Made by a program: the position numbers and the translations under genes. From IMG/VR virus record IMGVR_UViG_2974638963_000001, positions 32,001 to 96,000 of that record: a stretch of 64,000 nucleotides of DNA, one strand, 5' to 3'. Position 1 is the first letter of the stretch. The number at the start of each line of letters is the position of its first letter. Below the pieces are notes generated by a model, which was not told where the DNA came from, searched no databases, and was given only the letters and a program-made list of their open reading frames with translations. The stretch is from a virus. Its lineage: Duplodnaviria > Caudoviricetes. Shown piece after piece: positions 3,206 through 39,761 of the stretch.

Positions 3206-3311
3206 ATTAATTGTAAGAACACTCTTCGAATGCTCTTACAGTTAATTTTGTAAAACTAACTGGTGCACTCCTTTTCAAAGGATTTGGGTAAGCACGTACC
3301 CTCACGGTGTT

Positions 3312-3501
3312 TGGCGTTCTGGAACGGGGGTCGAACCCGCAAATACTAAGATCCTCATTCCTACTCACTGGTCTGCGTAGTCCAGCCCCTCGGTGCTATT
3401 GGATTCTTTTCTTCTGTACCCGAACCTAGTTACTATTTTAACCTCACAGCCTCAATCCACGCAGATGAAAGAGCTAAGCAACCTAGTTGTACAACCAGAC
3501 C
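3312..3501 (-). ncRNA. 190-nt tRNA-like RNA (acceptor stem, T-arm, CCA; large structured insert replacing the anticodon arm)
   Basis: 5' GGTCTGG pairs with 3' CCAGAAC-G-CCA; T-arm GCGGG TTCGACC CCCGT; nested stems TCTTTCAT/ATGAGGA, TCTGCGTGG/CTACGCAGA, GGATT/AATCC. Confidence 0.7.
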
Positions 3502-3507
3502 ATAATT

Positions 3508-3585
3508 TGGCACTGTAGAAGGGAGTCGAACCCTCAATGCTCCACCTTGAAAGGGTGGTGACTTTACCAGTTTGTCCACTACAGT
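3508..3585 (-). tRNA. tRNA-Glu(TTC)
   Basis: Anticodon arm CCACC-CT TTC AA-GGTGG; CCA. Confidence 0.92.
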
Positions 3586-3665
3586 ATAATCTAACTAAGA
3601 CTTGTAGGTCTGTTTCCACGGCTTAATTATCCGATTTGTCTCTACTCATTTACAAGTCTTAAAAT

Positions 3666-3750
3666 TGGTGCAGGATCGTGGACTCGAACCACGGAACCCC
3701 GAGGGGTGAAGATTTACAGTCTCCTGTCATTGCCGCTAGACTAATCCTGC
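3666..3750 (-). tRNA. tRNA-Tyr(GTA)
   Basis: Anticodon loop CT GTA AA, long variable arm ACCCCTCGGGGT, CCA. Confidence 0.92.
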
Positions 3751-6367: not shown

Positions 6368-6677
6368 ATTAATTAAGGTTGATTTCCCTGTACCCTGGCA
6401 GAGGTAAACTAAGCCACCACAGCTTAGAACTTCTTTGAGACGGTCTTGCGAAGAAATTAGTCACCTAGTTATTCACACTCACCGTTTCAAGGAGTAAATG
6501 TTACTAGAACTGGTATGAGGTACGCTCTTTCTCACCACTCGAGCTGCTGTAGGGACTCGAACCCTACAGAGCATAGGTTTACCCTCTAAACTGTATCTTC
6601 GCCCGTTTCGTGCTTGCCACACGCTCGTATCGGACTCTGTAATAACTCAAAGATTTCAGGAAAATCACTTAATTAAT
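6368..6677 (-). ncRNA. candidate ~310-nt structured RNA with T-arm hairpin and kissing loop
   Basis: Terminal IR 6368-6390/6657-6677; stem 6400-6410/6576-6587; CTGTAGGG TTCGAGT CCCTACAG; loop-loop complement 6435-6444/6481-6490; promoter immediately upstream; no ORF. Confidence 0.65.
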
Positions 6678-9389: not shown

Positions 9390-9464
9390 TGGCGTCCCCT
9401 ATAGGATTCGAACCTATGTATATCGGTTTAGAAGACCGATGCCTATCCTCTAGACTAAGGGGAC
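9390..9464 (-). tRNA. tRNA-Arg(TCT)
   Basis: Anticodon arm TCGGT-CT TCT AA-ACCGA; acceptor GTCCCCT/AGGGGAC; CCA. Confidence 0.92.
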
Positions 9465-9720: not shown

Positions 9721-9798
9721 TTGTTGTTCCTTTTAAGTTAAAATTAGTGAGCAGTTTTGGAGATGCTCAGCTCCACGGTTTCCCAAGGTAGTAGGGAA

Positions 9799-10197
9799 TT
9801 AAGTTAATTCGATCCAATTTTCATTGGAAATGTTCTGACCGTACACACCGCCATAGAAGTAGGTATCTTCCCCAGGAAGTACGATATTACCACCGTAGTA
9901 CCCGTTATGTTCTGTACGACATTCCATATCCATGATACCGGTAGAGGTTAGTAATTTACAACCATAACGGTCTGTAACGTCACCGTATTCTGCATGGATA
10001 GAATCTAGAGTATAGTCCTCAATGCCTTGAATAACAAACGGCATTTTTACAGGTAATTCAACGTGTTGGAAGAAGCTACTAGCGCAACAATCTCCGTCTA
10101 CACGAATAATTAAATCTTCACCAGTATCTGTTACTAACTTGACAGCTAGATCATCGGATGCTAGAAATACCTGTACAATACATTTTCCGATTAACAT
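9799..10197 (-). CDS. hypothetical protein (DCC...NGYYGG phage family)
   Basis: ORF track; GAGGA SD; conserved-looking DCC and NGYYGG motifs. Confidence 0.75.
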   Translation of the reverse strand: MLIGKCIVQVFLASDDLAVKLVTDTGEDLIIRVDGDCCASSFFQHVELPVKMPFVIQGIEDYTLDSIHAEYGDVTDRYGCKLLTSTGIMDMECRTEHNGYYGGNIVLPGEDTYFYGGVYGQNISNENWIELT

Positions 10198-10221
10198 TTT
10201 ATGTTCCTCTTAAAGTTGAAT

Positions 10222-10889
10222 TGGTAATGGGTTTAGGCTTTCTTCGTCTATATACAGTACGGTTACTAGTATTGTATGCATATTAAGTAGTGCCAGCGAA
10301 TGCTTAGCTTATAAGCCTCAGTTATCCTATTCTTTAACCACCTAGATGAACTAGACAGCCCAGTGTTATAACATAAGCGAGTTCGACACACCCATTTCGG
10401 GAAATACTCTACACTTTTTCCAGATACCCATCTTAGGTATTCCACCTAGGTCGGAGGTAGCCTCTCCTTTTATCCGGTGTGCTACGAGCAAAGTAGATCC
10501 CGAAATGGGGAGTGATCAATTCCTCATTTCCAAGTTAAGTACTTGGGACTCAATAGCCTAGTTCGCGACCTAGACTACTTATTCGTTGTTTTCACACATC
10601 ATGCTCCACGGGTGGAGGAATCGAACCTCTCTAGAGCGCTATTTCCCAGAATCCCGTATCTTCGCAGTTTTTGTGTTACTTACTTATTTTAGTCACTACT
10701 CCTTGAACCACATATACCACCCAGGTATACGTGGCGGGGCAGTAACAAAGGCAGAGTTTAGTGGTAGATTTAACTTACCAACATATTCTCTCAGATCTTG
10801 TACAGTGTGCGTTAGACCTCAGCGTAGTATGCCCGCTGTGCCTCTTATTAAATCGTACTTTTAGACTTAATTGCCGTGTTCCGATTCAA
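10222..10889 (-). ncRNA. candidate ~670-nt large ornate ncRNA (GOLLD/ROOL-like in size and context)
   Basis: Non-coding gap directly downstream of a promoter; many helices (e.g. 12-bp 10391-10402/10498-10509, 10708-10734, 10554-10577), internal T-arm GAGGTTCGATTCCTC, paired ends, 3' ACCA. Confidence 0.7.
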
Positions 10890-10896
10890 TATAAAT

Positions 10897-10925
10897 ATTA
10901 TATCAAATAATAAATCAAATGGCAA
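10897..10925 (-). promoter_or_regulatory. sigma70-type early promoter driving the large ncRNA
   Basis: TTGCCA-17-TATAAT, UP element. Confidence 0.8.
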
Positions 10926-10937
10926 TTGATTTTTTAA

Positions 10938-11222
10938 TTATTTTATTTCGAACCCTGCAACTAGAGAATCTAGAGTTTCTAGAAACTTTAACGTTTCATT
11001 ACGTTCTGCATACAAGCGCTGGCGTTCTGCATCAAGTATATCAGTTATAGCCTGTAGCACCTCAGGGCGTAAATCCCCATGCCTAAACTCAGTTCCGAAT
11101 ATGTATGGACTTACTCCTACTCCGGAATTAATTTTATGGGCTGTTACTAACGCTTTGCCTACCCTATCTAGGACTCTCTCAAGAAACTCCTGGTGTAGTT
11201 GAACTTCTTTAACTGTTTTCAT
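10938..11222 (-). CDS. hypothetical protein
   Basis: ORF track. Confidence 0.75.
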   Translation of the reverse strand: MKTVKEVQLHQEFLERVLDRVGKALVTAHKINSGVGVSPYIFGTEFRHGDLRPEVLQAITDILDAERQRLYAERNETLKFLETLDSLVAGFEIK

Positions 11223-11229
11223 TAAACAC

Positions 11230-11664
11230 CTACTTAGTGATTAGTGGTAAAACTGAACGAGCTACAGAGCTAGCTAACTTACCGTCGTATTGACCTAAGC
11301 GACGTGCTTTTAGAGTAGCCATAAGCTCACCTAAGTTTTCAGCACCTGCACACTCTTTTGTGAAGAAGTCATACAGATCATCCTCAGTCATTTGTACTGG
11401 TAACATACTTGTCAAAAGTTTTACGTACAGAGGGTCAGCTTCATATACTTGACCACTTAAAGCTGCCTTAGATCTAGTATCTTCTATAGCTTTTAACTGA
11501 GATTTAGCCCAAGTAATCATTTGATCACGAGAAACAAAATCTTTGCCAAATTTGTATTCTAAGTCACTGATGGCTGTAGAAACCACTTTAACCCATGCAG
11601 TGTCTTTACGTAAACGTGCTTGAAGCATTTCAGCTCGCAGGAAGTCTAACATTGACTCTTCCAT
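11230..11664 (-). CDS. GatB/YqeY domain protein
   Basis: 'LRAEMLQARLRKD', 'LPVQMTEDDL', 'GELMATLK...GQYDGKLAS' YqeY motifs; conserved in T5-like phages. Confidence 0.85.
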   Translation of the reverse strand: MEESMLDFLRAEMLQARLRKDTAWVKVVSTAISDLEYKFGKDFVSRDQMITWAKSQLKAIEDTRSKAALSGQVYEADPLYVKLLTSMLPVQMTEDDLYDFFTKECAGAENLGELMATLKARRLGQYDGKLASSVARSVLPLITK

Positions 11665-11665
11665 T

Positions 11666-12103
11666 TTATTTTCCTTTTAGTGAATAGAAACGGTGTCCAC
11701 CAATCTTCTCAATGAAATCCAACCTAGAATGATAAGCTAAAGGTTTTCCACTATGGAAGAATAGTGCATCGGGTACTGTCTCAGTAATATTACCAAAGTG
11801 GTAAGATACCATTGCTACTGCCTTAGATCTTATCCACATTTTAGGTTCTCTAATCGGGTATTTATGTGCCGTCCAAGAGAACTGGTACTTTTGGTATATT
11901 ACTCCGCAGTGTGTCGTAGGCTTAAATACTTTACTGTCTACTCGGTTATTTGTAACCTCAGCAACAGCAAATAATCCTCTAAGCGGCTCAGCTCTAGCCT
12001 CGTAGTAAATGTTCTCAGTAAGGCAAGTAACTTGAGGATTATCAGCTAGGCTAGGGACATTAGCCATTAACATCCCTAGTGTAAATGCTAGTTCAGGAGC
12101 CAT
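11666..12103 (-). CDS. cell wall hydrolase (SleB / Hydrolase_2 family)
   Basis: 'CLTENIYYEARAE', 'VAEVTNNRV', 'YQFSW', 'IGGHRFY'. Confidence 0.92.
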   Translation of the reverse strand: MAPELAFTLGMLMANVPSLADNPQVTCLTENIYYEARAEPLRGLFAVAEVTNNRVDSKVFKPTTHCGVIYQKYQFSWTAHKYPIREPKMWIRSKAVAMVSYHFGNITETVPDALFFHSGKPLAYHSRLDFIEKIGGHRFYSLKGK

Positions 12104-12480
12104 TAAAGACCCTTTTGCTCCATCAGACGTAACGCAGCATCGTTATCAGAGGCTACTCGTCCACCTGTGGCGCGGTCTAAAATACGCAGTATCTTACGAA
12201 TACCTGCTTCACGAACCTGAGCACGTTCTACAAGACGTTCCATTTTGCGATGAATCAATTTAGGACTTACCATACGACCACCAGCGTATTTAGACGCACG
12301 ACCCGCCTCATCGCGCATACGAATCATTTTCGCATAGTTAAATACGTTTTGTGCTTGTTCCGCTGTTAAGCCGTATCCAGTCATTAATCCAGCAATACTA
12401 GAAGTGTCTACACCATCTAATTCATCATAGGTGATTAGGTCAGCTTTAGTACCTGCTAATTGAGTTTCTTGTTTAGTCAT
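12103..12480 (-). CDS. hypothetical protein
   Basis: ORF track; AAGGA SD; coupled to next gene. Confidence 0.8.
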   Translation of the reverse strand: MTKQETQLAGTKADLITYDELDGVDTSSIAGLMTGYGLTAEQAQNVFNYAKMIRMRDEAGRASKYAGGRMVSPKLIHRKMERLVERAQVREAGIRKILRILDRATGGRVASDNDAALRLMEQKGL

Positions 12481-12491
12481 TTTTGTTATCC

Positions 12492-13220
12492 TTAGTTAAT
12501 TGCGTCAGTTAAAATTGCATGGCTTAAGTGAGCTTCTGCTAATGCGTCGAATAATGCATCATGATAATTCGGTACTAGGTCAAAGTGTTCAATCAAAGAC
12601 TTAGGAAGATTTGAGAATACCCATTTAGCATATTCTTCAGCATTCTTCACTAAATACCCGTAGGTTTCTGGACTGAAACGCTGTCTTGCCAGCCATTTAA
12701 GCGTTCTTGCAGATCCCACTTCTGTAAACCTGTACACCTTATGGTCAGGAAAGTGCAGATCGAAGATACCCATGTCAAACTCTGGTCCATTTCCTAGTAC
12801 GTGAGGTTCTTTACCTAGGTGTCTACGGAAAATTTGTGATACATCTTCGAACTGCCTGCTTCCGATAAACGACATAGTGCTGCCAGTATTAAATACATCA
12901 TTAAGCACAGGACCTACCATCGCGTATAAAGGTTCTGCGTTATTCCAGGTACGCAACTGAGACTCTCGTACAGCCTGAGCTATACGTTCAGATGTAAGCC
13001 ACCAGTTCTCTGTATCTGGGTCTGAGTGAAAATTCCCACTATCAACCTGAGACATAACACCCATCTTACCAATAAATAAGTACGGAAGTTCATGCTCTGG
13101 TACTATTGCGGCAAACGCAAATGTAGTCATGATAGGAATCAGTCCTGCAAATGCTGCTTCTTTAGGTCGAGATCTGGTCTCGATATCTAGAGCAGCCACT
13201 GTTTTGGTTAGAGCTTTCAT
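12492..13220 (-). CDS. DEDDh 3'-5' exonuclease family protein
   Basis: ExoI 'LDIET', ExoII 'GNGPEFD', ExoIII 'HDALFDA'. Confidence 0.75.
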   Translation of the reverse strand: MKALTKTVAALDIETRSRPKEAAFAGLIPIMTTFAFAAIVPEHELPYLFIGKMGVMSQVDSGNFHSDPDTENWWLTSERIAQAVRESQLRTWNNAEPLYAMVGPVLNDVFNTGSTMSFIGSRQFEDVSQIFRRHLGKEPHVLGNGPEFDMGIFDLHFPDHKVYRFTEVGSARTLKWLARQRFSPETYGYLVKNAEEYAKWVFSNLPKSLIEHFDLVPNYHDALFDALAEAHLSHAILTDAIN

Positions 13221-13455
13221 GTTTGTCCTCTTGGTTAAAGAAATCTATCAAAGTCGTGCTTTGGTAGACATCCTCGTAAGGATTGTCTAATTCATAGTGG
13301 TATTGCTCGTCTAACATATCTTCATACTCAGACAAGCAATCACCCAGATTTAGTCTATCACGAACATAGTCCTTGGCGGAGCGATGTGCTCCACCTCGGT
13401 TAAAGTCATGCTTTGCGACTAGGTTTCTGGCGGCGACGGGTTTGGCGTTTCTCAT
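13162..13455 (-). CDS. hypothetical protein
   Basis: ORF track; 'NLVAKHDFNRGGAH' motif typical of T5-like small proteins. Confidence 0.65.
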   Translation of the reverse strand: MRNAKPVAARNLVAKHDFNRGGAHRSAKDYVRDRLNLGDCLSEYEDMLDEQYHYELDNPYEDVYQSTTLIDFFNQEDKHESSNQNSGCSRYRDQIST

Positions 13456-13783
13456 TGTCCTTTTCCTTTAGTGCCTTAGCACGTTTTTCTTCGTCGCGAA
13501 TACGACGTGTAGTTTCCCACACCTCTTCATGCTTCGCAAACTTAGATTCAGACACAAACAACTCTTTGTTGCCTGCTTCGTCTACAATCCAGACTTTAGC
13601 ATCTGGAAAGTTCCCCTTGCTCTTAGGCTTAGAGCGTGCAGTACCTTTAAAACCATCCTTAGACTGTACGTCATTTGGATGAGCTTTCAGGTGGCGAGCC
13701 AGACGACGCTCACGATTCTTCTGAGTCGTGATAGCCTTAGTATCAACCTTAACTTCAACTGCTTTCTTAGGTGCTTTAGCCAT
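13406..13783 (-). CDS. basic hypothetical protein
   Basis: ORF track; AAGGA SD; 'RLARHLKAHPND' motif. Confidence 0.8.
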   Translation of the reverse strand: MAKAPKKAVEVKVDTKAITTQKNRERRLARHLKAHPNDVQSKDGFKGTARSKPKSKGNFPDAKVWIVDEAGNKELFVSESKFAKHEEVWETTRRIRDEEKRAKALKEKDNEKRQTRRRQKPSRKA

Positions 13784-13820
13784 AATTTGATTTCCTTTTA
13801 TTAATTAATTTATGAGATAT

Positions 13821-27988: not shown

Positions 27989-28013
27989 TTAATAGCTAAA
28001 TTTGATTTATAAT
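27985..28013 (+). promoter_or_regulatory. sigma70-type early promoter
   Basis: TTGATT-17-TATAAT. Confidence 0.75.
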
Positions 28014-28045
28014 AGTTTCATAAATTTGGAAAAGAGGAATTAGAT

Positions 28046-28765
28046 ATGGCAGGCGGAAAACGCAGACGTGTAGCTGCCCATGACATTCCAGATGCTTTAT
28101 TTATAGAAGCAAAAGAATGGCTTGAAAAGGGTGGTACAAAGAAAGGTGCATGTGACATCTTAAGCAAAAGTGGAGTCAATGTAGGCTCTAATAAAAAGAT
28201 GGAAGAGCTAATCCAAGAATGGGAAGACCGTAAAGTTTACGATGCAGAAATGAGAAAGCGTAAACGTGGTACGAGCATAGAAGGAGTTGAAGCCGCTTCC
28301 ATTATTGAAGATTACTTTGCTGGTATTAGTATCGCAGATATTGCAGACCAAAATCATCGTTCTCAGATGAAGATTAAATCATTCCTAGAAGAGAATGGTG
28401 CTTTGTTACGTGCTACTGAACCAGAAGATCCTAATCGTCCTTGGGAACTTTTCCCACCATTGCTAGATGAAAGTACATTTAGTGATGAATATAAGATTGG
28501 GGATATTGTTTGGGTAGCTGGTCGTCAGTGTTTTGGCGAAGTAACCCATAAATTATCTGATGATGTATATCGTGTGTGGCTTTTAAGCGGCAAACAGATG
28601 TATATTCCAGTTGAAGTATGGAACTTAGCCAACGTAGAACGCTTCAGAGAGTTTGGTGTAGATCCTAAGCGATTTGGAGAACGTTGGGAACGTGATGATG
28701 TGATAGTGACCTTGAATGAGGCACTTAAGAAAGCTAAATTAAATGCGGCTAAGGATGCAAAATAA
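28046..28765 (+). CDS. D2: T5 D2-like DNA-binding protein
   Basis: 'GGTKKGACDIL' and HTH-like region; T5 gene order. Confidence 0.75.
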   Translation: MAGGKRRRVAAHDIPDALFIEAKEWLEKGGTKKGACDILSKSGVNVGSNKKMEELIQEWEDRKVYDAEMRKRKRGTSIEGVEAASIIEDYFAGISIADIADQNHRSQMKIKSFLEENGALLRATEPEDPNRPWELFPPLLDESTFSDEYKIGDIVWVAGRQCFGEVTHKLSDDVYRVWLLSGKQMYIPVEVWNLANVERFREFGVDPKRFGERWERDDVIVTLNEALKKAKLNAAKDAK

Positions 28766-29019
28766 TGGTAAAAATGACTTTAGCAGAGATCTTTTCTAGG
28801 TCTCTATTGACCTCTCGTGTAGAATTTGCACGAAAAGAAGATAACTTGGAAGAAGGGCTTGAAAAGTTTTATGCTATTTCAAGTAATGATCCAGAAATGA
28901 AAAACGTTATAGAATTAAATACTATCAATACTGCAACAGGTGAAACCAAAGTAGAGCATAAATCTCTAGGGGAATTCATCCAACGGTATGGTATGCAGAG
29001 TCGTTGGTACTTGATCTAA
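28765..29019 (+). CDS. hypothetical protein
   Basis: ORF track; coupled to upstream gene. Confidence 0.7.
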   Translation: MVKMTLAEIFSRSLLTSRVEFARKEDNLEEGLEKFYAISSNDPEMKNVIELNTINTATGETKVEHKSLGEFIQRYGMQSRWYLI

Positions 29020-29027
29020 AAATTCAC

Positions 29028-29056
29028 TTGCTTAGTATTAGCAAAATTGTTATAAT
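29028..29056 (+). promoter_or_regulatory. sigma70-type early promoter
   Basis: TTGCTT-17-TATAAT. Confidence 0.8.
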
Positions 29057-29095
29057 ATTTATATAAATTAATCAACAACAAAAGGAAATAAATTT

Positions 29096-29494
29096 ATGTC
29101 AGAACTAGATAAAGTTGCACTTGCCGATCGTTACGTAGAAGTCATTTCTGCTTACCCAGAAGACGAGCGTCCATCAATTACAACTGAAGTTGTTAAGCAA
29201 GTAGCAGAAGAATTTGGTATCCCTGCCAACTCAGCACGTCTGCATATCAGTCGTGACCCACGTGGCGTTTATATTAAGAAAGATTCTGCCAAGAAATCAA
29301 CATCTGCTGATGGTGAAAAGAAAACTGGTGGAACTCGCACATCTAAAGCCGCAGCACAAGCTGAGCTAAAAGCAGCTCTGATGGATGCAGGTGCACCAGA
29401 AGATAAAGTTGCCGAAGGCGAAGAAATCATCGAGAAAATGACAGGTAAAGCTGCTCTGTTCTTAGCTGAATTAATTCGTTCAATCACTAAGTAA
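29096..29494 (+). CDS. D3: T5 D3-like protein
   Basis: 'GVYIKK', 'RTSKAAAQAEL', 'KMTGKAA' motifs; T5 gene order. Confidence 0.8.
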   Translation: MSELDKVALADRYVEVISAYPEDERPSITTEVVKQVAEEFGIPANSARLHISRDPRGVYIKKDSAKKSTSADGEKKTGGTRTSKAAAQAELKAALMDAGAPEDKVAEGEEIIEKMTGKAALFLAELIRSITK

Positions 29495-29506
29495 TAAGGA
29501 GCTGTT

Positions 29507-29836
29507 ATGACTAAGCGTTTTAGTGCAAACTTAAGTACACCTGTTAAAAAGGTCGAAGTTATTGCAGCGTGTGACGAGTATGGTGAAGTGTTTATTCACT
29601 ATCGCAAACAATCACGTAAGCCTGGTGAACCTTGGTCAACACAACTCCAAGGCACTATGGATTTCTCAGATAAGTATCTAGCTAAACGTTTTGAACAAGA
29701 ACAACCAGCACCAGCAGGTGAAGGTGAAATCTTAGTGTTTAGCAGAACCAACGATCGCTTCCGCTATCTGCCAGTGGATACAATCTTTAAGATTGAGCAT
29801 CTTGGCACAGTAGTTAACAAGGCTCGTGTCCTCTAA
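29507..29836 (+). CDS. hypothetical protein conserved in T5-like phages
   Basis: ORF track; AGGAG SD. Confidence 0.8.
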   Translation: MTKRFSANLSTPVKKVEVIAACDEYGEVFIHYRKQSRKPGEPWSTQLQGTMDFSDKYLAKRFEQEQPAPAGEGEILVFSRTNDRFRYLPVDTIFKIEHLGTVVNKARVL

Positions 29837-30170
29837 TATAGTTGAAGACGAAGGAATTGTTCGTCAGGAAAACGAAATGTATCCTGACGAATGCTCTGTT
29901 CCTTTGTGGGTTAAAAATGGGGAAGAAGTCCATTTCACAATCTCCGAATTTCGAGGCAACCTATATATGGGTATACGTCTATGGCTCCAAGATGCCACTG
30001 ACGAGAGTTGGTTCCCAACACGTGCTGGATTTTCTATCCCTTTTAACATCGACACATCTGCTAGATTATTCAAGGCACTTGCTCGAACACTGAGTAAGGC
30101 AGAAGTCCTTGATGAAGTCATACAGCATACACAAAACTGCGACACGCTTTCCGCGTTAAATAAATTATAA
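29826..30170 (+). CDS. PC4/p15-like ssDNA-binding protein
   Basis: 'TISEFRGNLYMGIRLW...WFPTRAGFSI' PC4 fold motif. Confidence 0.85.
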   Translation: MSSNIVEDEGIVRQENEMYPDECSVPLWVKNGEEVHFTISEFRGNLYMGIRLWLQDATDESWFPTRAGFSIPFNIDTSARLFKALARTLSKAEVLDEVIQHTQNCDTLSALNKL

Positions 30171-30199
30171 CCGTGCTTTTCAGTGCGGTTTTTATTTAC

Positions 30200-30228
30200 T
30201 TGCATTTTGCTTAAATTTTTGATATAAT
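30200..30228 (+). promoter_or_regulatory. sigma70-type early promoter
   Basis: TTGCAT-17-TATAAT. Confidence 0.75.
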
Positions 30229-30268
30229 ATTTATATTGAATAGGTAATATATCAAAGGGGATTAATAA

Positions 30269-31710
<1,442 letters not shown>

Positions 31711-31748
31711 TTGATTGGGGTGTTTCCACCTCGATTTTCAAACTCTAC

Positions 31749-31777
31749 TTGACGTCGCGACAAATTATATGTATAAT
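31749..31777 (+). promoter_or_regulatory. sigma70-type promoter between the ligase halves
   Basis: TTGACG-17-TATAAT. Confidence 0.7.
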
Positions 31778-31844
31778 AGTTATACTGATTTGGGGATGAG
31801 GTGTCATGGCTGATAAGCCTGACGGAAATGAGTAAAAAATTCAT

Positions 31845-32649
<805 letters not shown>

Positions 32650-32655
32650 ATAACT

Positions 32656-33444
32656 ATGAGTACTATCAAATTAGCGTGGAACGAAGAAACTACTAATGCA
32701 TTACGTGCGAAAGCTGAATCATTCGGTGGAGATGTAATCACTCAAGAACAAGTTGCCCAAATCGCTATTGAGCTTGGTAATGAATTCTCTGATGAAAAAG
32801 CAACTCGTGCTGCAACTGCTCGTTCAGTAGGTTCTAAACTGCGTAAAGAAGGTTTTGCTGTTCAACGTGCTGATGAAGTAGAAAAAGCTTCTGCATGGTC
32901 TGAAGATGAAACTGCTGAATTAGAAGCGTTCCTGAAAGCTTACGAGGGTGAGAAAACTTATGCTGAAATTGCTGCGGCGGTATGTGGTGGTAAATTCACA
33001 CGTGCTCAGGTTCAAGGTAAAGTTCTGCATCTTGAAATGACTGACAAAGTTAAGTTAACTCCGAAAGCTGCTGCTGTTCGTAAGTTTAGCCCTGAAGAAG
33101 AAAACAAGATCGTAAACTTGGTTGAAGCCGATGCATTCTTAGAGGATATCGCAGATGCATTAGATCGTACTTCTCGCCAGATTCATGGTAAATGCTTAAG
33201 TTTACTGCGTGAAAACCGTATTGCTAAATTACCAGAACAAAAAGTTCATAAAGAATCTGCTCGTGCTGATGCATTAGCTGGCTTAGACGTAGCGTCTATG
33301 ACTATCGCAGAAATCGCTGAAGCGACTGGTAAAAACGAAAAAGGCGTTAAATCAATGCTGACTCGTCGTGGTGTAGACTGTAAAGACTACAAAGGTGCTG
33401 CAAAACGCGCTAAATTAGACGAAAAAGCTGCTAAAGCTGAGTAA
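32656..33444 (+). CDS. D5: T5 D5-like DNA-binding protein
   Basis: Repeated HTH units ('RSVGSKLRK', 'VQGKVL', 'KGVKSMLTRRG'); T5 gene order. Confidence 0.85.
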   Translation: MSTIKLAWNEETTNALRAKAESFGGDVITQEQVAQIAIELGNEFSDEKATRAATARSVGSKLRKEGFAVQRADEVEKASAWSEDETAELEAFLKAYEGEKTYAEIAAAVCGGKFTRAQVQGKVLHLEMTDKVKLTPKAAAVRKFSPEEENKIVNLVEADAFLEDIADALDRTSRQIHGKCLSLLRENRIAKLPEQKVHKESARADALAGLDVASMTIAEIAEATGKNEKGVKSMLTRRGVDCKDYKGAAKRAKLDEKAAKAE

Positions 33445-33483
33445 TCGTTAAGTTACAAATCTTTCACAAGATTACCAACCTTT

Positions 33484-33518
33484 AGGGGAGAGGGATTAAT
33501 TTCCTCTCCCCTTTTCTG
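33484..33518 (+). terminator. intrinsic terminator
   Basis: GGGGAGAGG...CCTCTCCCC followed by TTTT. Confidence 0.8.
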
Positions 33519-33557
33519 TTTTTGGACAGCACGAAAGTGTAGTGAATGAGAGGAGTA

Positions 33558-35075
33558 ATGTTTAACGTTCAAGCGGTTGTATTAAAACAACTATTAACCA
33601 CGGATGATGCTGTACAAGTTACATTCGCACTAGCACGTCTACGAAAAGAACACTTTACTGATGCTTTTTCCTCAATCTACGTGGCTATCCAGAATTACTA
33701 TAAGACAAGTGGAAAGATACCTACACTAGACAGCTTACGATTATCGGCTAACAGAAATGTTAGGCTATCGCAAGCGTTAGCAGTTTTAGACATGCAAGAA
33801 GTGCCAGAGGTCGAGATTTCTGAATCTATAGACGTACTGGAAACTGAGTTCGCTCAAGACTTGACACTAAAGCTGCTGGAAAGTGAGGTGCTTAACGATC
33901 TATATGCACTAGACAAGGATGCGCTAGTAGACAGACTTAATAGTCTTGCTATGCAAGTTGAGAATGAGGTCGGACAGAGTGGTGCAATTACTCAAGCATA
34001 CGAAATCGAAATATTCAAAGAGAAAGGTGCTCCTAAGTTAGCAGTATCTCTAGGAATTAGTAATGAGTTCGAAATACATTCTGGCAGCTTACAGCGTACC
34101 GAAGTAATGTTTTTAGGTGGTTTTCGTGGTTCTGGTAAGTCTATTGTATGTTGTAACATGCAAGTGACCCAATATCAGCAGGGGAAAGTATCGCCATACT
34201 TCTCACTGGAGATGAAAGCACACGAGGTAATGGAGAGAAACCTAGCAATATTATCGGGAGTTTCAGCATCAAGCCTTAGACTTGGAAGATTAGCCCCTGA
34301 AGAAGTTCAGCAGCTATTGAAGACAAGAGCAAGCATGTTCCATGGTGGTCTTGACGAGTATCATAAATATGCAGCAAAATACACAATCAATGAGATGAGT
34401 GATGGATTCGAACTTGAGAAGCTACTAAGAACCGAGTTCGAGGAAATAACTCCAATGCCTATCATTCATGATCCTAAGTTGAGTATTGAACAACTGGGAG
34501 CAATAACTAGAGGATTAATTAGTGTTCATGGTGAAGAGAGTGTTGAGTTAGTAATTCTTGACTACTTAAACCAGGTTCGAGTTCATGGTACATCAGATAT
34601 TCAGATGTATGATTGGATCCCTCAGATGGTTGTTGCTAAGCAATTCAAGACAACGTGTGGAGAATTAAACGTTGCTGGTGTATCTCCTTACCAAATGGAT
34701 AAACATGGTAATGCTCGTATGTCACAAGGTATCCTAGATTCCTGTGATATGGCGCTGACCTTGAACCCTGCTAAGAAACCGAAAGGTGCAGATGGTAAGA
34801 GAGACCCTATGGGTGCAATTGTTTTTGAAACAACTAAAGTACGTAGCATGGATGATATGATTCTAGCTCCAGGTATTAGTTGGGAAACGTTGAGAATCGA
34901 CCCAGCAGTTAACTACACAAAAGAAGATTTATTAGTTAAGGGCTTAGAACTAGCGTTAGACTTTGACAAAAAGAGTGGCGACAAATCCGAAAGAAAAGGA
35001 AAGAAAACCCCTCCTAAGAAAGACCTAGATCCTAACACAGCAGGAGGCCCACCAGCCGGAGCAACTGACCTATGA
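33558..35075 (+). CDS. D6: DnaB-like replicative helicase (T5 D6)
   Basis: 'GFRGSGKS', 'FSLEM', 'ILDYLNQ'; precedes primase. Confidence 0.9.
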   Translation: MFNVQAVVLKQLLTTDDAVQVTFALARLRKEHFTDAFSSIYVAIQNYYKTSGKIPTLDSLRLSANRNVRLSQALAVLDMQEVPEVEISESIDVLETEFAQDLTLKLLESEVLNDLYALDKDALVDRLNSLAMQVENEVGQSGAITQAYEIEIFKEKGAPKLAVSLGISNEFEIHSGSLQRTEVMFLGGFRGSGKSIVCCNMQVTQYQQGKVSPYFSLEMKAHEVMERNLAILSGVSASSLRLGRLAPEEVQQLLKTRASMFHGGLDEYHKYAAKYTINEMSDGFELEKLLRTEFEEITPMPIIHDPKLSIEQLGAITRGLISVHGEESVELVILDYLNQVRVHGTSDIQMYDWIPQMVVAKQFKTTCGELNVAGVSPYQMDKHGNARMSQGILDSCDMALTLNPAKKPKGADGKRDPMGAIVFETTKVRSMDDMILAPGISWETLRIDPAVNYTKEDLLVKGLELALDFDKKSGDKSERKGKKTPPKKDLDPNTAGGPPAGATDL

Positions 35076-35950
35076 AAGTAGAAGATCTATTAACCGGTAA
35101 GGGAATTGAGTATACTAACGCAGGTGGTGATTTACTTATCACCTGCCTTAATCCCCAACATATTGATGCATCACCGTCTTTACGTGTTGATCGTGAGACG
35201 GGGGTTATGCACTGTTTAGCCTGTGGATTTGGTAAAGGTATACCAAGTATTTTCCATTACTTTAATAAAGAATTGCCGCGCTCTCACGGTCGTCTAGCTA
35301 AGATACGTGGAATGATACGCGACTTTAACACACTAAACCAAGATTTAGCAATACCAGAGAACTCTATTCCGTTTAAGGATGATTACCGAGGAATCTCTGG
35401 AGCCACATACGAGAAGTATTTTGCATTTCAACAACAATCAGACTGGGAGAATAGAATAGTATTTCCTATTACGGATGCGATGGGTAAAAACAAAGCGTTT
35501 TTAGGAAGAACTCAGTTAGGCGATGCAAAACCAAAATATCTCGTGCGCCCATCTAACGTTCCACTTCCCCTGTTCCCTAGCCGTTACGGAGAGTCTGTCA
35601 TAGTCCTCGTTGAGGGCTTGTTCGATATGCTCAACCTTGAAGATAAAGGTATGACTAATGTAGTCTGCTGTTTCGGTACACATCAGTTCTCGCCTAACAA
35701 CATCAAGGAAAAATTCACAGCATTAGAAGTATCTGGAGTTAATACGGTAGTAATATTATTTGACAACGATGACTCAGGAAATAAATCAGCGGACTTCCTA
35801 TTTAAGTTGATCCGCGATAAAACTGATATGACACCTATAGTTGGAAATTTCTTAGTTCCATCTTCTAAAGACCCAGGCGATCTAACTGCGGAAGAAGTTG
35901 AATCATTAAGCTGGAAAATAAATAAACTACTTGCGGAAAAGTTCCAATAG
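35072..35950 (+). CDS. DNA primase (DnaG-like)
   Basis: Zn finger 'CLNPQH..CLACG', TOPRIM 'VEGLFD', 'FDND', 'KDPG'. Confidence 0.93.
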   Translation: MKVEDLLTGKGIEYTNAGGDLLITCLNPQHIDASPSLRVDRETGVMHCLACGFGKGIPSIFHYFNKELPRSHGRLAKIRGMIRDFNTLNQDLAIPENSIPFKDDYRGISGATYEKYFAFQQQSDWENRIVFPITDAMGKNKAFLGRTQLGDAKPKYLVRPSNVPLPLFPSRYGESVIVLVEGLFDMLNLEDKGMTNVVCCFGTHQFSPNNIKEKFTALEVSGVNTVVILFDNDDSGNKSADFLFKLIRDKTDMTPIVGNFLVPSSKDPGDLTAEEVESLSWKINKLLAEKFQ

Positions 35951-35959
35951 TGATATAAT
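35931..35959 (+). promoter_or_regulatory. sigma70-type promoter for DNA polymerase
   Basis: TTGCGG-17-TATAAT. Confidence 0.7.
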
Positions 35960-36022
35960 ATATTTTGTAAGTTGCAGAAGTAATATTTGAAATTATACTT
36001 ACTTACCTAATAGGAGAAAACA

Positions 36023-37830
36023 TTGAGTTCACTAAAAATTGCGGTGGTCGATAAATCACCATCTAGAGCTAACTATCAGAAGTCCTTAAATTTATGGGAC
36101 TATGATGTTGAAGTATTTCATATGGCTCATGAAAGTTTTACCGGTCGTATGCTTAAGAAGCATATCACAATCGGTACACCAGATAATCCATTTAATCCAG
36201 ACGACTTTGATTATGTAATTCTGGTAGGTGCAGAGCCGTTTAAACAATTCACAGGTAGAACTGGAGTTGTAGATTACACCGGTAAACTAACTGAGGGTCT
36301 AGATGGTAAACTAAAATATTTAGTTTGTATTAATCCATCTCAAGTACACTTTAAGCCAGAAATGAAACCTGTTCTGGATAAAACTATAACTGACTTTGAA
36401 CGTATCCTCAATGGTACGGCTAAGCCACCGAAGCCTGGTAATTATAAACCAATACAAGATACTGATGAGGCATATGAGTATCTCTGTATGATTCGCTCTA
36501 TGTTACCTGCTGCTGTAGTTGCATTTGACTCCGAAACATCGGGTCTATATGCTAGAGATTGTTATGTATTAGGTTTGTCAATCTCACATCAAGAATATCA
36601 AGGTGTATACATTGATGCAGATAATATTGATGAACGTTGTGTTTATGTTCTTCAAGAAATCTTAGATCAGAAAGATCGTCCAATCGTATTCCATAACTTG
36701 AAGTTCGATATTCATATGTATGAGTATCACTTTGGGTTTAATTTTGAAAAAGCATTTGCAGAAGATCGTATGCACGATACAATGCTAATGCACTATGTAC
36801 TAGACGAACGTCGTGGTACTCATGGTTTGAAATCTTTGGCTATGCAATTTACTGATATGGGTGACTATGACTTTGAACTCGATCAGTTCAAGAGTGAGTA
36901 TTGCAGAGCACATGGTATTAAGAAAGAAGATTTCACATATGATCTGATCCCCTTCGAGATCATGTGGCCCTATGCTGCCAAAGATACCGATGCTACCATT
37001 CGTTTATTCAACTTCTTCTATCCGAAGATCCAAGCAAACGAAGCGTTTATGCGTTTATACCATGGTCTATTGATGCCAGGTTGTCGATTCTTGCAGCGTG
37101 TTGAAGATCGTGGAGTACCTATCAATAAAGATAGACTAGTAACAGCGCAAGAACTATTAACTGATAAGCTTAACGGCTTGACTCAAGAGTTGTACTCGTT
37201 CCCTGAAGTTATGGAGTATGAGGCAATTAAGGGGGCTAAATTCAACCCTAACTCTCCAGTTCAGTTACGTGAGTTACTATTTGATGTTCTAGGATTAGAA
37301 CCTACAGGTAAGTTGACAGATACAGGTGCTATATCTACAGATGCTGAGTCTCTAGAGAAGATTTCCTCACAACATCCAGTAGCTAAGATCCTACTTAATA
37401 TTCGTAAGACAACCAAACTCTTGTCTACGTACATTGAGAAGCTGTTAATCAGTATAGATACTGATGGCTGTGTAAGAACAGGATTTAACTTACACATGAC
37501 AACATCGGGTCGATTAAGTTCTTCTGGTAAGTTAAACTTACAACAGTTACCTCGTGATGAGTCTATAATTAAAGCATGTATTACTGCTCCAGTTGGCTAT
37601 AGGGTAGTTGCACATGACTTAACAACTGCTGAGATTTACTATGCTGCCGTGTTATCTGGAGACAGAAACATGCAACAAGTGTTTATTAACATGCAGAATG
37701 ACCCAGAACGTTATCCTGACTTCCACGCCAACATTGCCCACATGGTATTTGGTCTGGATTGTGAACCTAACCAAGTTAAGAATTTGTATCCTGCATTACG
37801 CCAGGCTGCTAAAGCAATCAGTTTCGGGAT
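36023..37830 (+). CDS. pol: family A DNA polymerase, exon 1
   Basis: 3'-5' exo 'FDSETSG', 'HNLKFD'; 'SGRLSSS...NLQQ', motif A 'DLTTAE', motif B 'RQAAKAISFGI' broken by the intron. Confidence 0.93.
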
Positions 37831-38941
37831 TAACCTATAAAGGTTCCGATCTAGAGTAATCTAGTCTCAACTGAATAAATAAAGAGAATAACTCGCTCAA
37901 TTGTCGGGGACGCTAAGTCTAGAAGTAGATATGCCAATCCGCAGCCAGAGTTCCTGGGGACAGGTTCAAATGGTTCAGAGACTGACAGAATATCTAGAAC
38001 AGATATTGCTGCGATGGAGAAATCCATAATACGGCGAGATACCTATTTACACGATTACCTGTCTTTTGAACCCTACGGGCAGGAGATGATCATGGAAATA
38101 AATAAAGAAAATTACGATAATTTAAAAGCACAGAAGTTAACAAGAGGTAAGATAGCCGAAGTTTTTGGTATCCCTGAATGGAGACTAAAGAAACTAATAG
38201 CCAGAGAGGGTTGGGGGAGAAAGATACCCAAATACGAATATAATAACTGCTTTATTCGTGACACTGCTGAAGCAGCTTACTGGTTAGGTTTCCTATTCGC
38301 AGATGGTTGTGTAGATCATAAAGGGCGAGTACGTCTAATGTTGCAGGATGCCGATGAACGTCATATAGAGAAGTTCAGGTCTTTCGTAGGAGCAGAAGAC
38401 TACACTATACAGCAGTGTTCAGGGTACACCAGAAAAGCCCTGGAGTTTACGTCTAAGGAAGCCTGCAAAGATCTCTCTATATTTGGTATCTTACCTAATA
38501 AGACTCTAAAGTCCATTATCCCAGACCAAGAAGTATTCGGGGAACACTTAAACTCCTTTTTACGGGGGCTATTTGACGGGGATGGTACTATATGTGAGTC
38601 GTTCTCTAATGCTAATTCCATAACTGCAACCCTGTATACAGGATTTGCTATAGCTAAGCAAAATATGGAATGGCTGGATAATGTGCTAACTAATATTGTA
38701 GGTGTATCGTATAAAGTATACGAAAAAGATAACATCTATACAGTAACCCTAAATACTAATAAATCTATACGACTACTAGAGTATATGTATACTAATTCTA
38801 CAGAAAGTACTCGTCTAGATAGAAAATACGAAATGTATAACAACATAGTGCTACAGGGTAATCGTAAGACTAGGTAGTAACTAGTCAGAATAAATAGGTA
38901 TAAGGTATAGTCCGCACCATATGAAAATATGGAATTATGTG
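37831..38941 (+). mobile_element. self-splicing group I intron (IA2-like) in DNA polymerase
   Basis: P1 TCGGGAT/GTTCCGA with U-G at the splice site; P AATTGTCGGGGA, Q AATCCGCAGC, R GTTCAGAGACT, S AAGGTATAGTCC; P8 ATACCTATTTA/TAAATAGGTAT; terminal G 38941; splicing restores GGG ATC TTA TAT GGG (GILYG). Confidence 0.93.
38092..38877 (+). CDS. intron-encoded LAGLIDADG homing endonuclease with N-terminal HTH
   Basis: Two motifs 'YWLGFLFADG' and 'FLRGLFDGDG'; AGGAG SD at 38081; lies in the P8 loop. Confidence 0.9.
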   Translation: MEINKENYDNLKAQKLTRGKIAEVFGIPEWRLKKLIAREGWGRKIPKYEYNNCFIRDTAEAAYWLGFLFADGCVDHKGRVRLMLQDADERHIEKFRSFVGAEDYTIQQCSGYTRKALEFTSKEACKDLSIFGILPNKTLKSIIPDQEVFGEHLNSFLRGLFDGDGTICESFSNANSITATLYTGFAIAKQNMEWLDNVLTNIVGVSYKVYEKDNIYTVTLNTNKSIRLLEYMYTNSTESTRLDRKYEMYNNIVLQGNRKTR

Positions 38942-39761
38942 CTTATATGGGTCAGGTCCAAGCAAGGTTGCTGAGTCTGTTAACATGGCTCTGTTAGAGC
39001 AATCAATCAAAACTGGCGAACCGTACACACCATGTACGAAAGATGATGCATTGGAGTATATCGAGACTTACTTCTCTAGCTTCCCACAATTACGTCGTTG
39101 GATTGAAGATTCTCACTCACAAATCGAACAGTTCGGTTTCATCTATTCTCACTTTGGTCGTAAACGTCGTTTACCTAACGTGACTTCTGATGATAAAGGT
39201 GTTCGTGCCGGTGAAGTTCGTTCAGGGTTTAACGCAATCATTCAGGGTGCGTCTTCTGATTCCCTGTTACTAGGGGCTATCGATGCAGATAACGAGATCG
39301 AAAAACTGGGATTATCTGACGAAATGAAAATCATTATGCTAGTACACGACTCTGTAGTTGCTATTGTGCGTGAAGATCTTGTTGATCAATATAACGAATT
39401 AATAGTTAGAAACATCCAGACAGACCGTGGTATTAGTATCAAAGGTTGCCCAATTGGAGTAGGTCAAGACTCTGAGGACGGGGGTTCTGTTGACTACTCT
39501 TGTGGTAAGGTTAAAGGTCAACACCCAATGATCGCAGTGATTCAGGATGAAGAATATCTAAACAATCTTGTAAAAGAGATTGAAGCTGATATCGATCTTC
39601 AATACACTATGCACGTGTTGAAAGATAAAAAACATGCCGAGTATGACGAGATCAAGGCTGAACGTAAGTTGTTGTCTAAAGTAGCTCTAGACTGTGGAAA
39701 TATTGAGGTTGAATTAAACTCAATTATTGAGAGCTTCTGCCCTCAAGTAGCGAGACTGTAG
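38942..39761 (+). CDS. pol: family A DNA polymerase, exon 2
   Basis: 'LYGSG', 'FGRKR', 'NAIIQG', motif C 'VHDS'; spliced product 875 aa. Confidence 0.93.

Follow-up and report, generated by a model that had tools for sequence, protein, structure and literature searches.

What is encoded in a stretch of ∼670 nucleotides (nt) that lies at the edge of a transfer RNA (tRNA) cluster in an otherwise gene-dense, T5-like phage genome and holds no credible open reading frame (ORF)? The stretch occupies positions 10,222 to 10,889 of a 64,000-nt piece of viral DNA (Duplodnaviria; Caudoviricetes), referred to here as the window, which covers positions 32,001 to 96,000 of IMG/VR record IMGVR_UViG_2974638963_000001, a complete 118.5-kb virus record with direct terminal repeats. 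A first-pass annotation, made from the letters of the window alone, had proposed a large, promoter-driven, ornate noncoding RNA (ncRNA), either of the GOLLD/ROOL class or new, in a lytic T5-like phage. Our analysis supports a large, promoter-driven, ornate ncRNA at the edge of the tRNA cluster of a lytic T5-like phage and revises its class: it is very probably a genuine structured RNA, the form that RNAX, an RNA annotated in phage T5, takes in Priunavirus. The RNA spans window positions ∼10889 down to ∼10225 on the minus strand (∼665 nt) and is present in a single copy in the 118.5-kb genome.

Relationship to RNAX of phage T5

At 40848-41566, the T5 record (NC_005859) lists a 719-nt misc_RNA, rnaX/T5s08, and describes it as "RNAX, stable RNA with unknown functions." Upstream of it are the endolysin gene, a YqeY-like gene annotated as "tRNA amidotransferase," and promoter P16-17, and it abuts tRNA-Arg. 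The RNA studied here takes the same genomic position, with its own promoter after a YqeY-like gene, upstream of tRNA-Arg(UCU) and at the edge of the tRNA cluster. A profile of the Priunavirus/Novosibvirus family matches T5 RNAX (E value of 4e-9) and all seven of the RNAX loci examined (E values of 1.6e-11 to 6e-5), always via the same segment. The blocks held in common with Epseptimavirus RNAX are GGGUGU(GU)CGAAC..CUUAUGU.AUAACACUG, then an insert, then AAAGAAU..GAUAACU..GGCUUAUA..UAAGCAUUCGCUG and, further on, GCC(W)AAACC.

For R3, a covariance model of the RNAX core, only sequences from T5, SE20, Seafire, K7rec1, Shiner, and Eos were used; it thus contains no Priunavirus or Novosibvirus sequence. 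R3 matches the window end to end at 10228-10397 on the minus strand (74.3 bits; E value of 7e-18) and matches five homologues at 69 to 72 bits; the next matches are real tRNAs, which score 14 to 21 bits on the tRNA-like insert of the model. The defining elements of the family core are a closing helix, the helix CACUUAUGU.../...GAUAACUGG with an apical insert, the hairpin GCUU-loop-AAGC, and the final ...GCC(W)AAACC. In a joint core alignment, which was itself fitted to R3, 99.4% of cells are paired (26 to 46% with slid partners), and 20 of 34 pairs are compensated, compared with 0 to 3 for slid partners and 14.0 ± 1.6 for shuffled columns; none of 500 shuffles reached the observed value. R3 detects a single copy in each of four genomes: Eps7 (131 bits), Pectobacterium phage DU_PP_V (126 bits), BF23 (85 bits), and the one studied here. 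It gave no match in two phages outside Demerecviridae, an Aeromonas Plateaulakevirus and a Vibrio phage without a family in its record. By BLASTN, about 525 phage records contain relatives of T5 RNAX, covering between 18% and 100% of it.

The suggestion of a new large ornate RNA is therefore superseded: judged by sequence, the RNAX core makes up the 3' ∼170 nt, and as RNAX already has an annotation in T5, the RNA does not represent a new class.

Noncoding status and conserved fold

BLASTN located the complete element in Providencia phage PSTCR5 (82% identity) and also in eight Proteus Novosibvirus records (∼71% identity). In these records it always lies between the YqeY-like gene and the first tRNA, either unannotated or under stray short ORFs. 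Broader searches added little. Exact-word scans of IMG/VR recovered only the three phages that were already known, all other matches failing an nhmmer or model filter; an exact-word scan of metagenomes gave chance matches only, and two scans of GTDB genomes gave nothing or chance matches only. Use of the flanking hydrolase as a query in IMG/VR yielded no further relatives.

Several observations bear out the claim that the gap holds no credible ORF. The longest open frames in the region are not conserved among homologues, eight of the nine insertions or deletions relative to PSTCR5 are not multiples of 3, and substitutions relative to PSTCR5 are spread evenly over the codon positions (21/20/25). 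As judged from these patterns, the region codes for no protein. An antisense gene, represented by a 174-codon open frame in PSTCR5, was also considered and rejected: it has no codon-position bias, its counterparts in Proteus phages contain stops throughout, and its translation is not protein-like.

The folding energy of the region is modestly unusual (z = −3.6 on both strands; 20 shuffles). Because the value is equal on both strands, thermodynamics neither proves an RNA nor picks its strand. The consensus fold has an energy of −114.8 kcal/mol on the minus strand versus −98.7 kcal/mol on the plus strand. We read the RNA as a minus-strand transcript because all surrounding genes and 18 tRNAs are carried on that strand and because the promoter, the "ATTACCA" end, and the T-arm are readable only there.

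In an alignment of eight sequences, invariant blocks alternate with variable, length-changing blocks, and RNAalifold gave a consensus of 163 pairs. In this fold, 94.9% of cells are paired, compared with 36 to 41% when partners are slid. Compensatory double changes occur in 27 of the 163 pairs, compared with 3 to 5 for slid partners and 10.6 ± 2.6 for shuffled columns (reached by 0 of 500 shuffles), the structure being scored on the same sequences from which it was derived, effectively three lineages. The fold thus appears to be kept by compensatory changes.

Promoter and domain organization

From 5' to 3', the promoter and the parts of the RNA are as follows.

10897-10925, minus strand: TG-extended sigma-70 promoter TTGCCA-17-TATAAT, conserved throughout the homologues and agreeing with the consensus at 11 of 12 positions
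10850-10887, minus strand: 5' hairpin P1 (AAUCG/CGAUU), specific to the Priunavirus/Novosibvirus form
10781-10838, minus strand: pseudoknot module, in which the loop GCAUA (10828-10832) of hairpin CAGCG/CGCUG pairs with UAUGU (10781-10785)
10667-10782, minus strand: variable 5' region; 61 to 76% identity to PSTCR5
10596-10667, minus strand: tRNA-like cassette, with outer stem UGC/GCA, acceptor-like stem UACGGG/CCCGUG, a GG-containing junction, and a T-arm
10530-10595, minus strand: A-rich linker GAAAACAACGAAUA and twin hairpins, with two compensated pairs in each hairpin
10385-10517, minus strand: long hairpin domain, with invariant closing stem GAUCAC..CCCAUUUCGGGA / UCCCGAAAUGGG..GUGUC and variable inner helices
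10228-10397, minus strand: RNAX core, matched over its full length by the independent model R3

The promoter is as first proposed: transcription would be expected to start near 10889, ∼7 nt past the near-consensus extended −10 promoter. In Klebsiella phages, the same promoter type lies a few bases upstream of tRNA-Gln and drives the tRNA directly. From this strong and conserved promoter, we infer that the RNA is transcribed at the head of the tRNA operon.

Hairpin P1 is invariant, and covariation is therefore silent for or against it. The Shiner and Epseptimavirus RNAs lack P1 and start directly at the pseudoknot module. Between the two pseudoknot strands lies a second hairpin (10793-10819) with four compensated pairs. 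Across four genera, 96.7% of the pseudoknot cells are paired, and two of the five pairs are fully compensated (AU<->CG and GC<->UA). The observed states are GCAUA/UAUGU in the window, GCAGA/UCUGU in Proteus phages, and GCCGA/UCGGU in Shiner and TrudiRoth. In the variable and poorly aligned 5' region, a local hairpin is found at the same spot with a sequence that differs by lineage (UGGUA/UACCA here, GAGAG/CUCUC in PSTCR5, and CACUA/UAGUG in Proteus phages), and the region also contains a lineage-specific hairpin at 10708-10734.

In the twin-hairpin block, the first hairpin has an invariant loop, GUCGCGAA, with a self-complementary UCGCGA (window 10552-10579), and the second is CCAAGU/ACUUGG. 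The UCGCGA in loop GUCGCGAA is a candidate kissing-loop dimerization site, although one palindrome among ∼15 loops is near chance (∼0.7 expected, by estimate). A model of the twin hairpins, R1, matches only Priunavirus and Novosibvirus. The long hairpin aligns, through its 3' half, with that of Klebsiella phages Shiner and K7rec1; in Shiner, the hairpin is closed by AUGGUGG/CCGCCAU in the position of the CCCAUUUCGGGA/UCCCGAAAUGGG stem.

The core comprises the closing helix UGGG/CCCA, the helix CUCGCUUAUGUUAU/AUAGGAUAACUGAG with a plain apical hairpin, the hairpin GCUUA/UAAGC, an optional hairpin (10246-10289) enclosed by a helix GGC/GCC, and the 3' block GAAGAAAGCCUAAACCCAU. The closing helix is the pairing that shows compensation between genera, being GUGG/CCAC in RNAX versus UGGG/CCCA here. 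UGGG (10391-10394) is both the end of the invariant 12-bp stem of the long hairpin and the 5' strand of the closing helix of the core, and two invariant CCCA blocks (10506-10509 and 10228-10231) compete for it. These alternatives may represent a conformational switch, a cotranscriptional folding intermediate, or simply a shorter stem. A divergent or permuted ribonuclease P (RNase P) RNA, suggested by GAAGAAAGCC and GGCUUAU, was rejected, as no model matched at E values of ≤10 and the blocks are explained by the RNAX core.

All of the helices listed in the first-pass annotation are present where it placed them. The perfect 12-bp helix (10391-10402/10498-10509) is invariant in all eight sequences, and the hairpins at 10528-10548 and 10554-10577 carry two compensatory pairs each; those at 10708-10734 and 10675-10680/10741-10746, on the other hand, are lineage specific and fall in the variable 5' half. 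Its two proposals concerning the ends of the RNA did not survive comparison. In PSTCR5, only GUCU/AGAC is left of the end-to-end pairing (10246-10250/10862-10866 and 10256-10261/10854-10859), and Stubb, PL1, Ph1, and VTCC cleanly lack the hairpin that contains its 3' partners. The CCA-like "...ATTACCA" end is not conserved; the conserved 3' end of the element is GAAGAAAGCC(W)AAACCCAU.

The tRNA-like cassette

The internal T-arm, GAGG-UUCGAUU-CCUC at 10615-10629, is present as first described and is identical at 15 of 15 positions to that of the tRNA-Val of this phage. The rest of the cassette is not tRNA, and neither ARAGORN nor the Rfam tRNA model called it in runs that found the genuine tRNAs nearby. 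At least two types of cassette exist: one shared by the window, PSTCR5, and PL1, and a larger PM135 type. The stems persist through three sequence versions, those that covary being GAGG/CCUC, UACGG/CCGUA, CUGGG/CCCAG, and CUAGG/CCUAG, and the shape of the T-arm is kept with different sequences in PL1, PM135, and VTCC. Because PL1, otherwise a typical Novosibvirus, carries the window/PSTCR5 type, the cassette appears to have been exchanged by recombination.

The composite pattern GCGAAGAT-N(15-40)-GTTCGANTCC occurs twice in the 64-kb window, in the cassette and at 6553-6602, with 0.00 occurrences expected by chance. Its restriction to these two sites suggests that the module is reused in this phage, in at least two ncRNAs. 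The second site lies on the minus strand in a gene-free stretch (6368-6677) and reads as a second tRNA-like module, GCGAAGAUAC ... GCUCU ... T-arm. The 10-mer GCGAAGAUAC by itself was discarded because chance alone accounts for it (E = 32), significance being reached by the composite pattern only.

In most RNAX genera, the core helix carries a nearly complete tRNA-like domain at its apex, annotated in some records as tRNA-OTHER or tRNA-Sec. Here, the apex is a plain hairpin (10331-10367), and the T-arm cassette is located upstream instead. As such, a tRNA-like element appears to be constant across the family, with its position differing.

Modular architecture across Demerecviridae

The RNA of Shiner is collinear with the RNA studied here, with the order TTGCCT-17-TATAAT promoter, hairpin-plus-pseudoknot module, long hairpin, and core. 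Epseptimavirus has the pseudoknot module without the long hairpin. In T5, which seems to have a short form, little separates AAAUUAGAGAG from CUCUUCUCUAAUUU and the core. Past the core, T5 and Shiner continue for ∼490 to 640 nt; a BLAST-level search with the 3' extension of T5 RNAX (positions 230-719; ∼490 nt) gave no match anywhere in the 118.5-kb genome. The extension itself varies among family members, whose coverage of T5 RNAX runs between 18 and 100%. From these alignments, the lineage studied here appears to consist of a ∼490-nt 5' part plus the core, T5 of the core plus a 3' part, and Sugarlandvirus of all three. A circular permutation relative to T5 is ruled out, as the order of the parts is the same as in the Sugarlandvirus and Epseptimavirus forms. 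As far as the models can see, P1, the T-arm cassette, and the twin hairpins are specific to Priunavirus/Novosibvirus. In all, the covariation-supported core spans at least six genera of Demerecviridae, and whole domains have been added, lost, and swapped around it.

A number of points weigh against this assignment or limit its reach. Homology to T5 RNAX itself can be demonstrated for the core only, about one-quarter of the sequence, and the joint core alignment was fitted to the model by which that homology was detected. Searches with R1 and R2, the models of the twin hairpins and the long hairpin, were negative in the genomes of Eps7, BF23, DU_PP_V, phiA019, and a Sugarlandvirus phage and also in the RNAX loci when filters were turned off. 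These results had suggested a family confined to two genera, a view ruled out by the RNAX core matches. Few lineages stand behind the structure, effectively three for the 5' two-thirds, and no terminator or defined 3' end was detected for the RNA. The word "stable" is a label in NC_005859, and the RNA of this phage is read from its sequence. All statements on function are inferred, and the sequence names no partner.

Genomic neighborhood and annotation

The slot in this phage has the order endolysin, YqeY-like "tRNA amidotransferase" gene, promoter, RNA, and tRNA-Arg(UCU), with two coding sequences (CDSs) between the RNA and tRNA-Arg(tct) at 9390-9464. A DUF7448 gene lies downstream of the RNA at 9799-10197, and a DUF7448 CDS is likewise found 3' of the RNA in PSTCR5. 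In other phages, the 3' neighbor is an unrelated ORF (PM135 and RP7) or tRNA-Arg directly (Stubb, PL1, Ph1, and VTCC). The ORF of PM135 (piece 3246-3680) and RP7 (piece 1599-2033) encodes 110 amino acids, is inserted between the RNA and tRNA-Arg, and has no match in Pfam or PHROG. This ORF is flanked on either side by a copy of the ∼54-nt spacer usually found ahead of tRNA-Arg, a duplication that looks like the footprint of a mobile insertion.

Comparison of window positions 9728-13799 with PSTCR5 shows that the upstream genes are 99 to 100% identical. Exactly from the promoter and start of the RNA, identity falls to a patchy 61 to 95%, the high values being those of the core and the low values those of the variable blocks, and it is 65 to 76% in the downstream DUF7448 gene. 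Given this sharp drop, the recombination history of the RNA must differ from that of its upstream neighbors.

Although T5 is among the oldest model phages, its RNAX is missing from Rfam and the searchable literature, and hardly any genome record annotates it. No paper was found on RNAX, PSTCR5, or this locus in Novosibvirus, and neither a paper nor RNA-seq data were found behind the "stable RNA" label of T5. Short "hypothetical protein" CDSs lie over RNAX-type RNAs in Seafire (190-351), TrudiRoth (360-530), and K7rec1 (four CDSs between 185 and 1231), and CDSs likewise lie over the RNA in Stubb (2645-2743) and RP7 (980-1282; all in piece coordinates); other records carry tRNA-OTHER or tRNA-Sec calls. 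These CDS and tRNA calls are probably spurious. The region merits annotation as an ncRNA in Priunavirus and Novosibvirus genomes, which are phage therapy candidates for Providencia and Proteus.

Proposed function and alternatives

A constant tRNA mimic, the promoter of a tRNA operon, and neighbors with RNA- or tRNA-related annotations together point to tRNA biology. Since the 3' neighbor varies, the RNA is not expected to be a cis-regulator of one gene, which favors a trans-acting RNA derived from the early tRNA-operon transcript. We propose that the RNA would be cut from this long transcript by host RNA- and tRNA-processing nucleases, excision being invoked because of the missing terminator. 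Once released, it would accumulate as a stable RNA, the description given to RNAX in the T5 record, and would act in trans as a scaffold displaying a tRNA-like elbow. It might thereby bind or divert host factors that handle or attack tRNAs, serving as a decoy or sponge that protects or tunes the phage tRNA supply. According to PMC11464382, T5 tRNAs counter a tRNA-cleaving defense, and it is on this account that a decoy or sponge is the function we favor, though tentatively.

Alternatively, the RNA could be a processing leader, i.e., the structured 5' portion of the tRNA-operon transcript, which organizes cleavage or protects the precursor and has no function after release. Consistent with this, the RNA always lies between the tRNA-operon promoter and tRNA-Arg(UCU), no terminator intervenes, and the T5 record places the 3' end of RNAX exactly at the 5' end of tRNA-Arg, an RNase P site. 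In Klebsiella phages, moreover, the same promoter type drives a tRNA directly. However, a covariation-supported structure of 670 to 1,300 nt with invariant loops far exceeds the needs of a leader, and other tRNA promoters of the same phages function without one. Two protein genes separate the RNA from tRNA-Arg in this phage, and RNAX is labeled stable in the T5 record. We therefore regard a mere leader as doubtful.

Our second-choice function is self-assembly into an RNA-only particle of the GOLLD/ROOL functional kind, in which loop-loop and A-minor contacts would build a multimer or cage working with phage tRNAs. The setting and layout are as stated for those RNAs in PMC12286853, a tRNA-like cassette lies between the variable and conserved parts, and loops and junctions are invariant, including the self-complementary UCGCGA hairpin loop. 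Against these likenesses, the GOLLD, ROOL, and OLE models show no similarity at E values of ≤10, a single 6-nt palindrome in ∼15 loops is near the chance expectation, and covariation requiring an intermolecular contact was not seen. The whole-domain differences among members are also hard to fit to a fixed cage geometry, and such a particle seems unlikely.

Less probable again is an RNA subunit of a ribonucleoprotein formed with a nearby phage protein (YqeY-like, DEDD exonuclease-like, or DUF7448). The neighbors are annotated with RNA- or tRNA-related functions, the YqeY-like gene lies directly upstream of the promoter in T5, Proteus, and Providencia phages, and the long invariant stem suggests sequence-specific recognition. 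The YqeY-like gene is, however, general in T5-like phages, so that its co-occurrence is uninformative, and DUF7448 is not downstream in Proteus phages. The differing recombination histories (identity to PSTCR5 of 99 to 100% in the upstream genes versus 61 to 95% in the RNA) further argue against a joint complex. Finally, a DNA-level element rather than an RNA (a replication origin, a packaging or nick site cluster, or decayed tRNA genes) is highly improbable: although both strands fold equally well by energy and the T-arm is identical to that of tRNA-Val, a conserved strong promoter stands exactly at the start, many compensatory G-U pairs would turn into A-C on the opposite strand, the consensus fold favors the minus strand, the pseudoknot covaries, the tRNA resemblance is confined to the T-arm, and the T5 homologue is annotated as RNA.

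Comparison with known RNAs

GOLLD and ROOL are phage-encoded RNAs of unknown function found beside tRNA islands; they have a conserved and a less conserved part, and tRNAs are sometimes present in the linker of GOLLD (PMC12286853). Like GOLLD (RF01998) and ROOL (RF03087), the RNA studied here is a large phage RNA by tRNAs, with a conserved and a variable region and a tRNA-like insert. It differs in lacking covariance-model similarity to either, in its setting in a lytic T5-like phage of a Gram-negative Enterobacterales host, and in that multimers are not in evidence. The proposed GOLLD/ROOL-class identity is contradicted by the Rfam 15 covariance scans, which found nothing inside the element at the gathering score or at E values of ≤10 in the window, nor at E values of ≤5 in four homologues, and in which the nearby tRNAs were all found. 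Specifically, the GOLLD, ROOL, and OLE models did not match the element at E values of ≤10, and no Rfam match or ARAGORN call for tRNA, transfer-messenger RNA, RNase P RNA, or group I or II introns was obtained in it. The resemblance to GOLLD and ROOL is one of setting and layout only.

A bolder reading, which we put forward as speculation and consider unlikely, is that RNAX-type RNAs form a third, Gram-negative class of giant phage RNAs beside GOLLD and ROOL: modular tRNA-mimic scaffolds, present in >500 sequenced T5-like phages including T5, that act as decoys against tRNA-targeting immunity or as self-assembling particles handling phage tRNAs. If so, the swappable tRNA-like cassette would be a specificity module exchanged between phages under host pressure. 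The role of giant RNAs beside tRNA clusters is still open for GOLLD and ROOL, and a core with domain swapping and a retained tRNA-like element offers, in T5 and with Escherichia coli genetics, a tractable system for such RNAs.

Smaller relatives in kind are T5 RNA1, RNA2, and RNA3 and the bacterial or phage Y-like RNA YrlA, in which a tRNA-like module is likewise part of an RNA that is not itself a tRNA and that is encoded among phage tRNA genes. They differ in size (70 to 170 nt versus 670 nt), so that only the ∼70-nt T-arm cassette is comparable, and no Rfam match to YrlA or Y RNA was found in the element. In the interval 28000-39500, NC_005859 lists seven further stable RNAs of 73 to 172 nt (RNAI, RNAIII, RNAIV, RNA1, RNA2, RNA2H, and RNA3), three of which the record describes as tRNA-like. 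These small stable RNAs may be the counterparts of other gene-free stretches in the window; in the tRNA region of the window, Rfam matched tRNAs and nothing else.

T5 RNAX shares with the RNA studied here its genomic slot, its own promoter, its place ahead of tRNA-Arg, and its approximate size (719 versus about 665 nt), as well as a homologous core of ∼170 to 200 nt with the same covarying helices; both have a tRNA-like element. T5 RNAX differs in that the core lies at its 5' end and is followed by a ∼490-nt extension lacking in this genome, that it has neither the pseudoknot module nor the long hairpin, and that its tRNA-like domain sits at the apex of the core helix. The twin-hairpin block is found in Priunavirus and Novosibvirus only, not in T5 RNAX. 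The RNAX-type RNAs of Sugarlandvirus (Shiner, PQ283208, 39.9-41.2 kb) and Epseptimavirus (Seafire and TrudiRoth), which are unannotated, differ in having the 3' extension of T5 and a tRNA-like insert within the core and in lacking P1, the T-arm cassette, and the twin hairpins. They are nevertheless collinear with the RNA studied here and supply the third covarying state of the pseudoknot, and Sugarlandvirus and Eos share with it the long hairpin between the pseudoknot module and the core.

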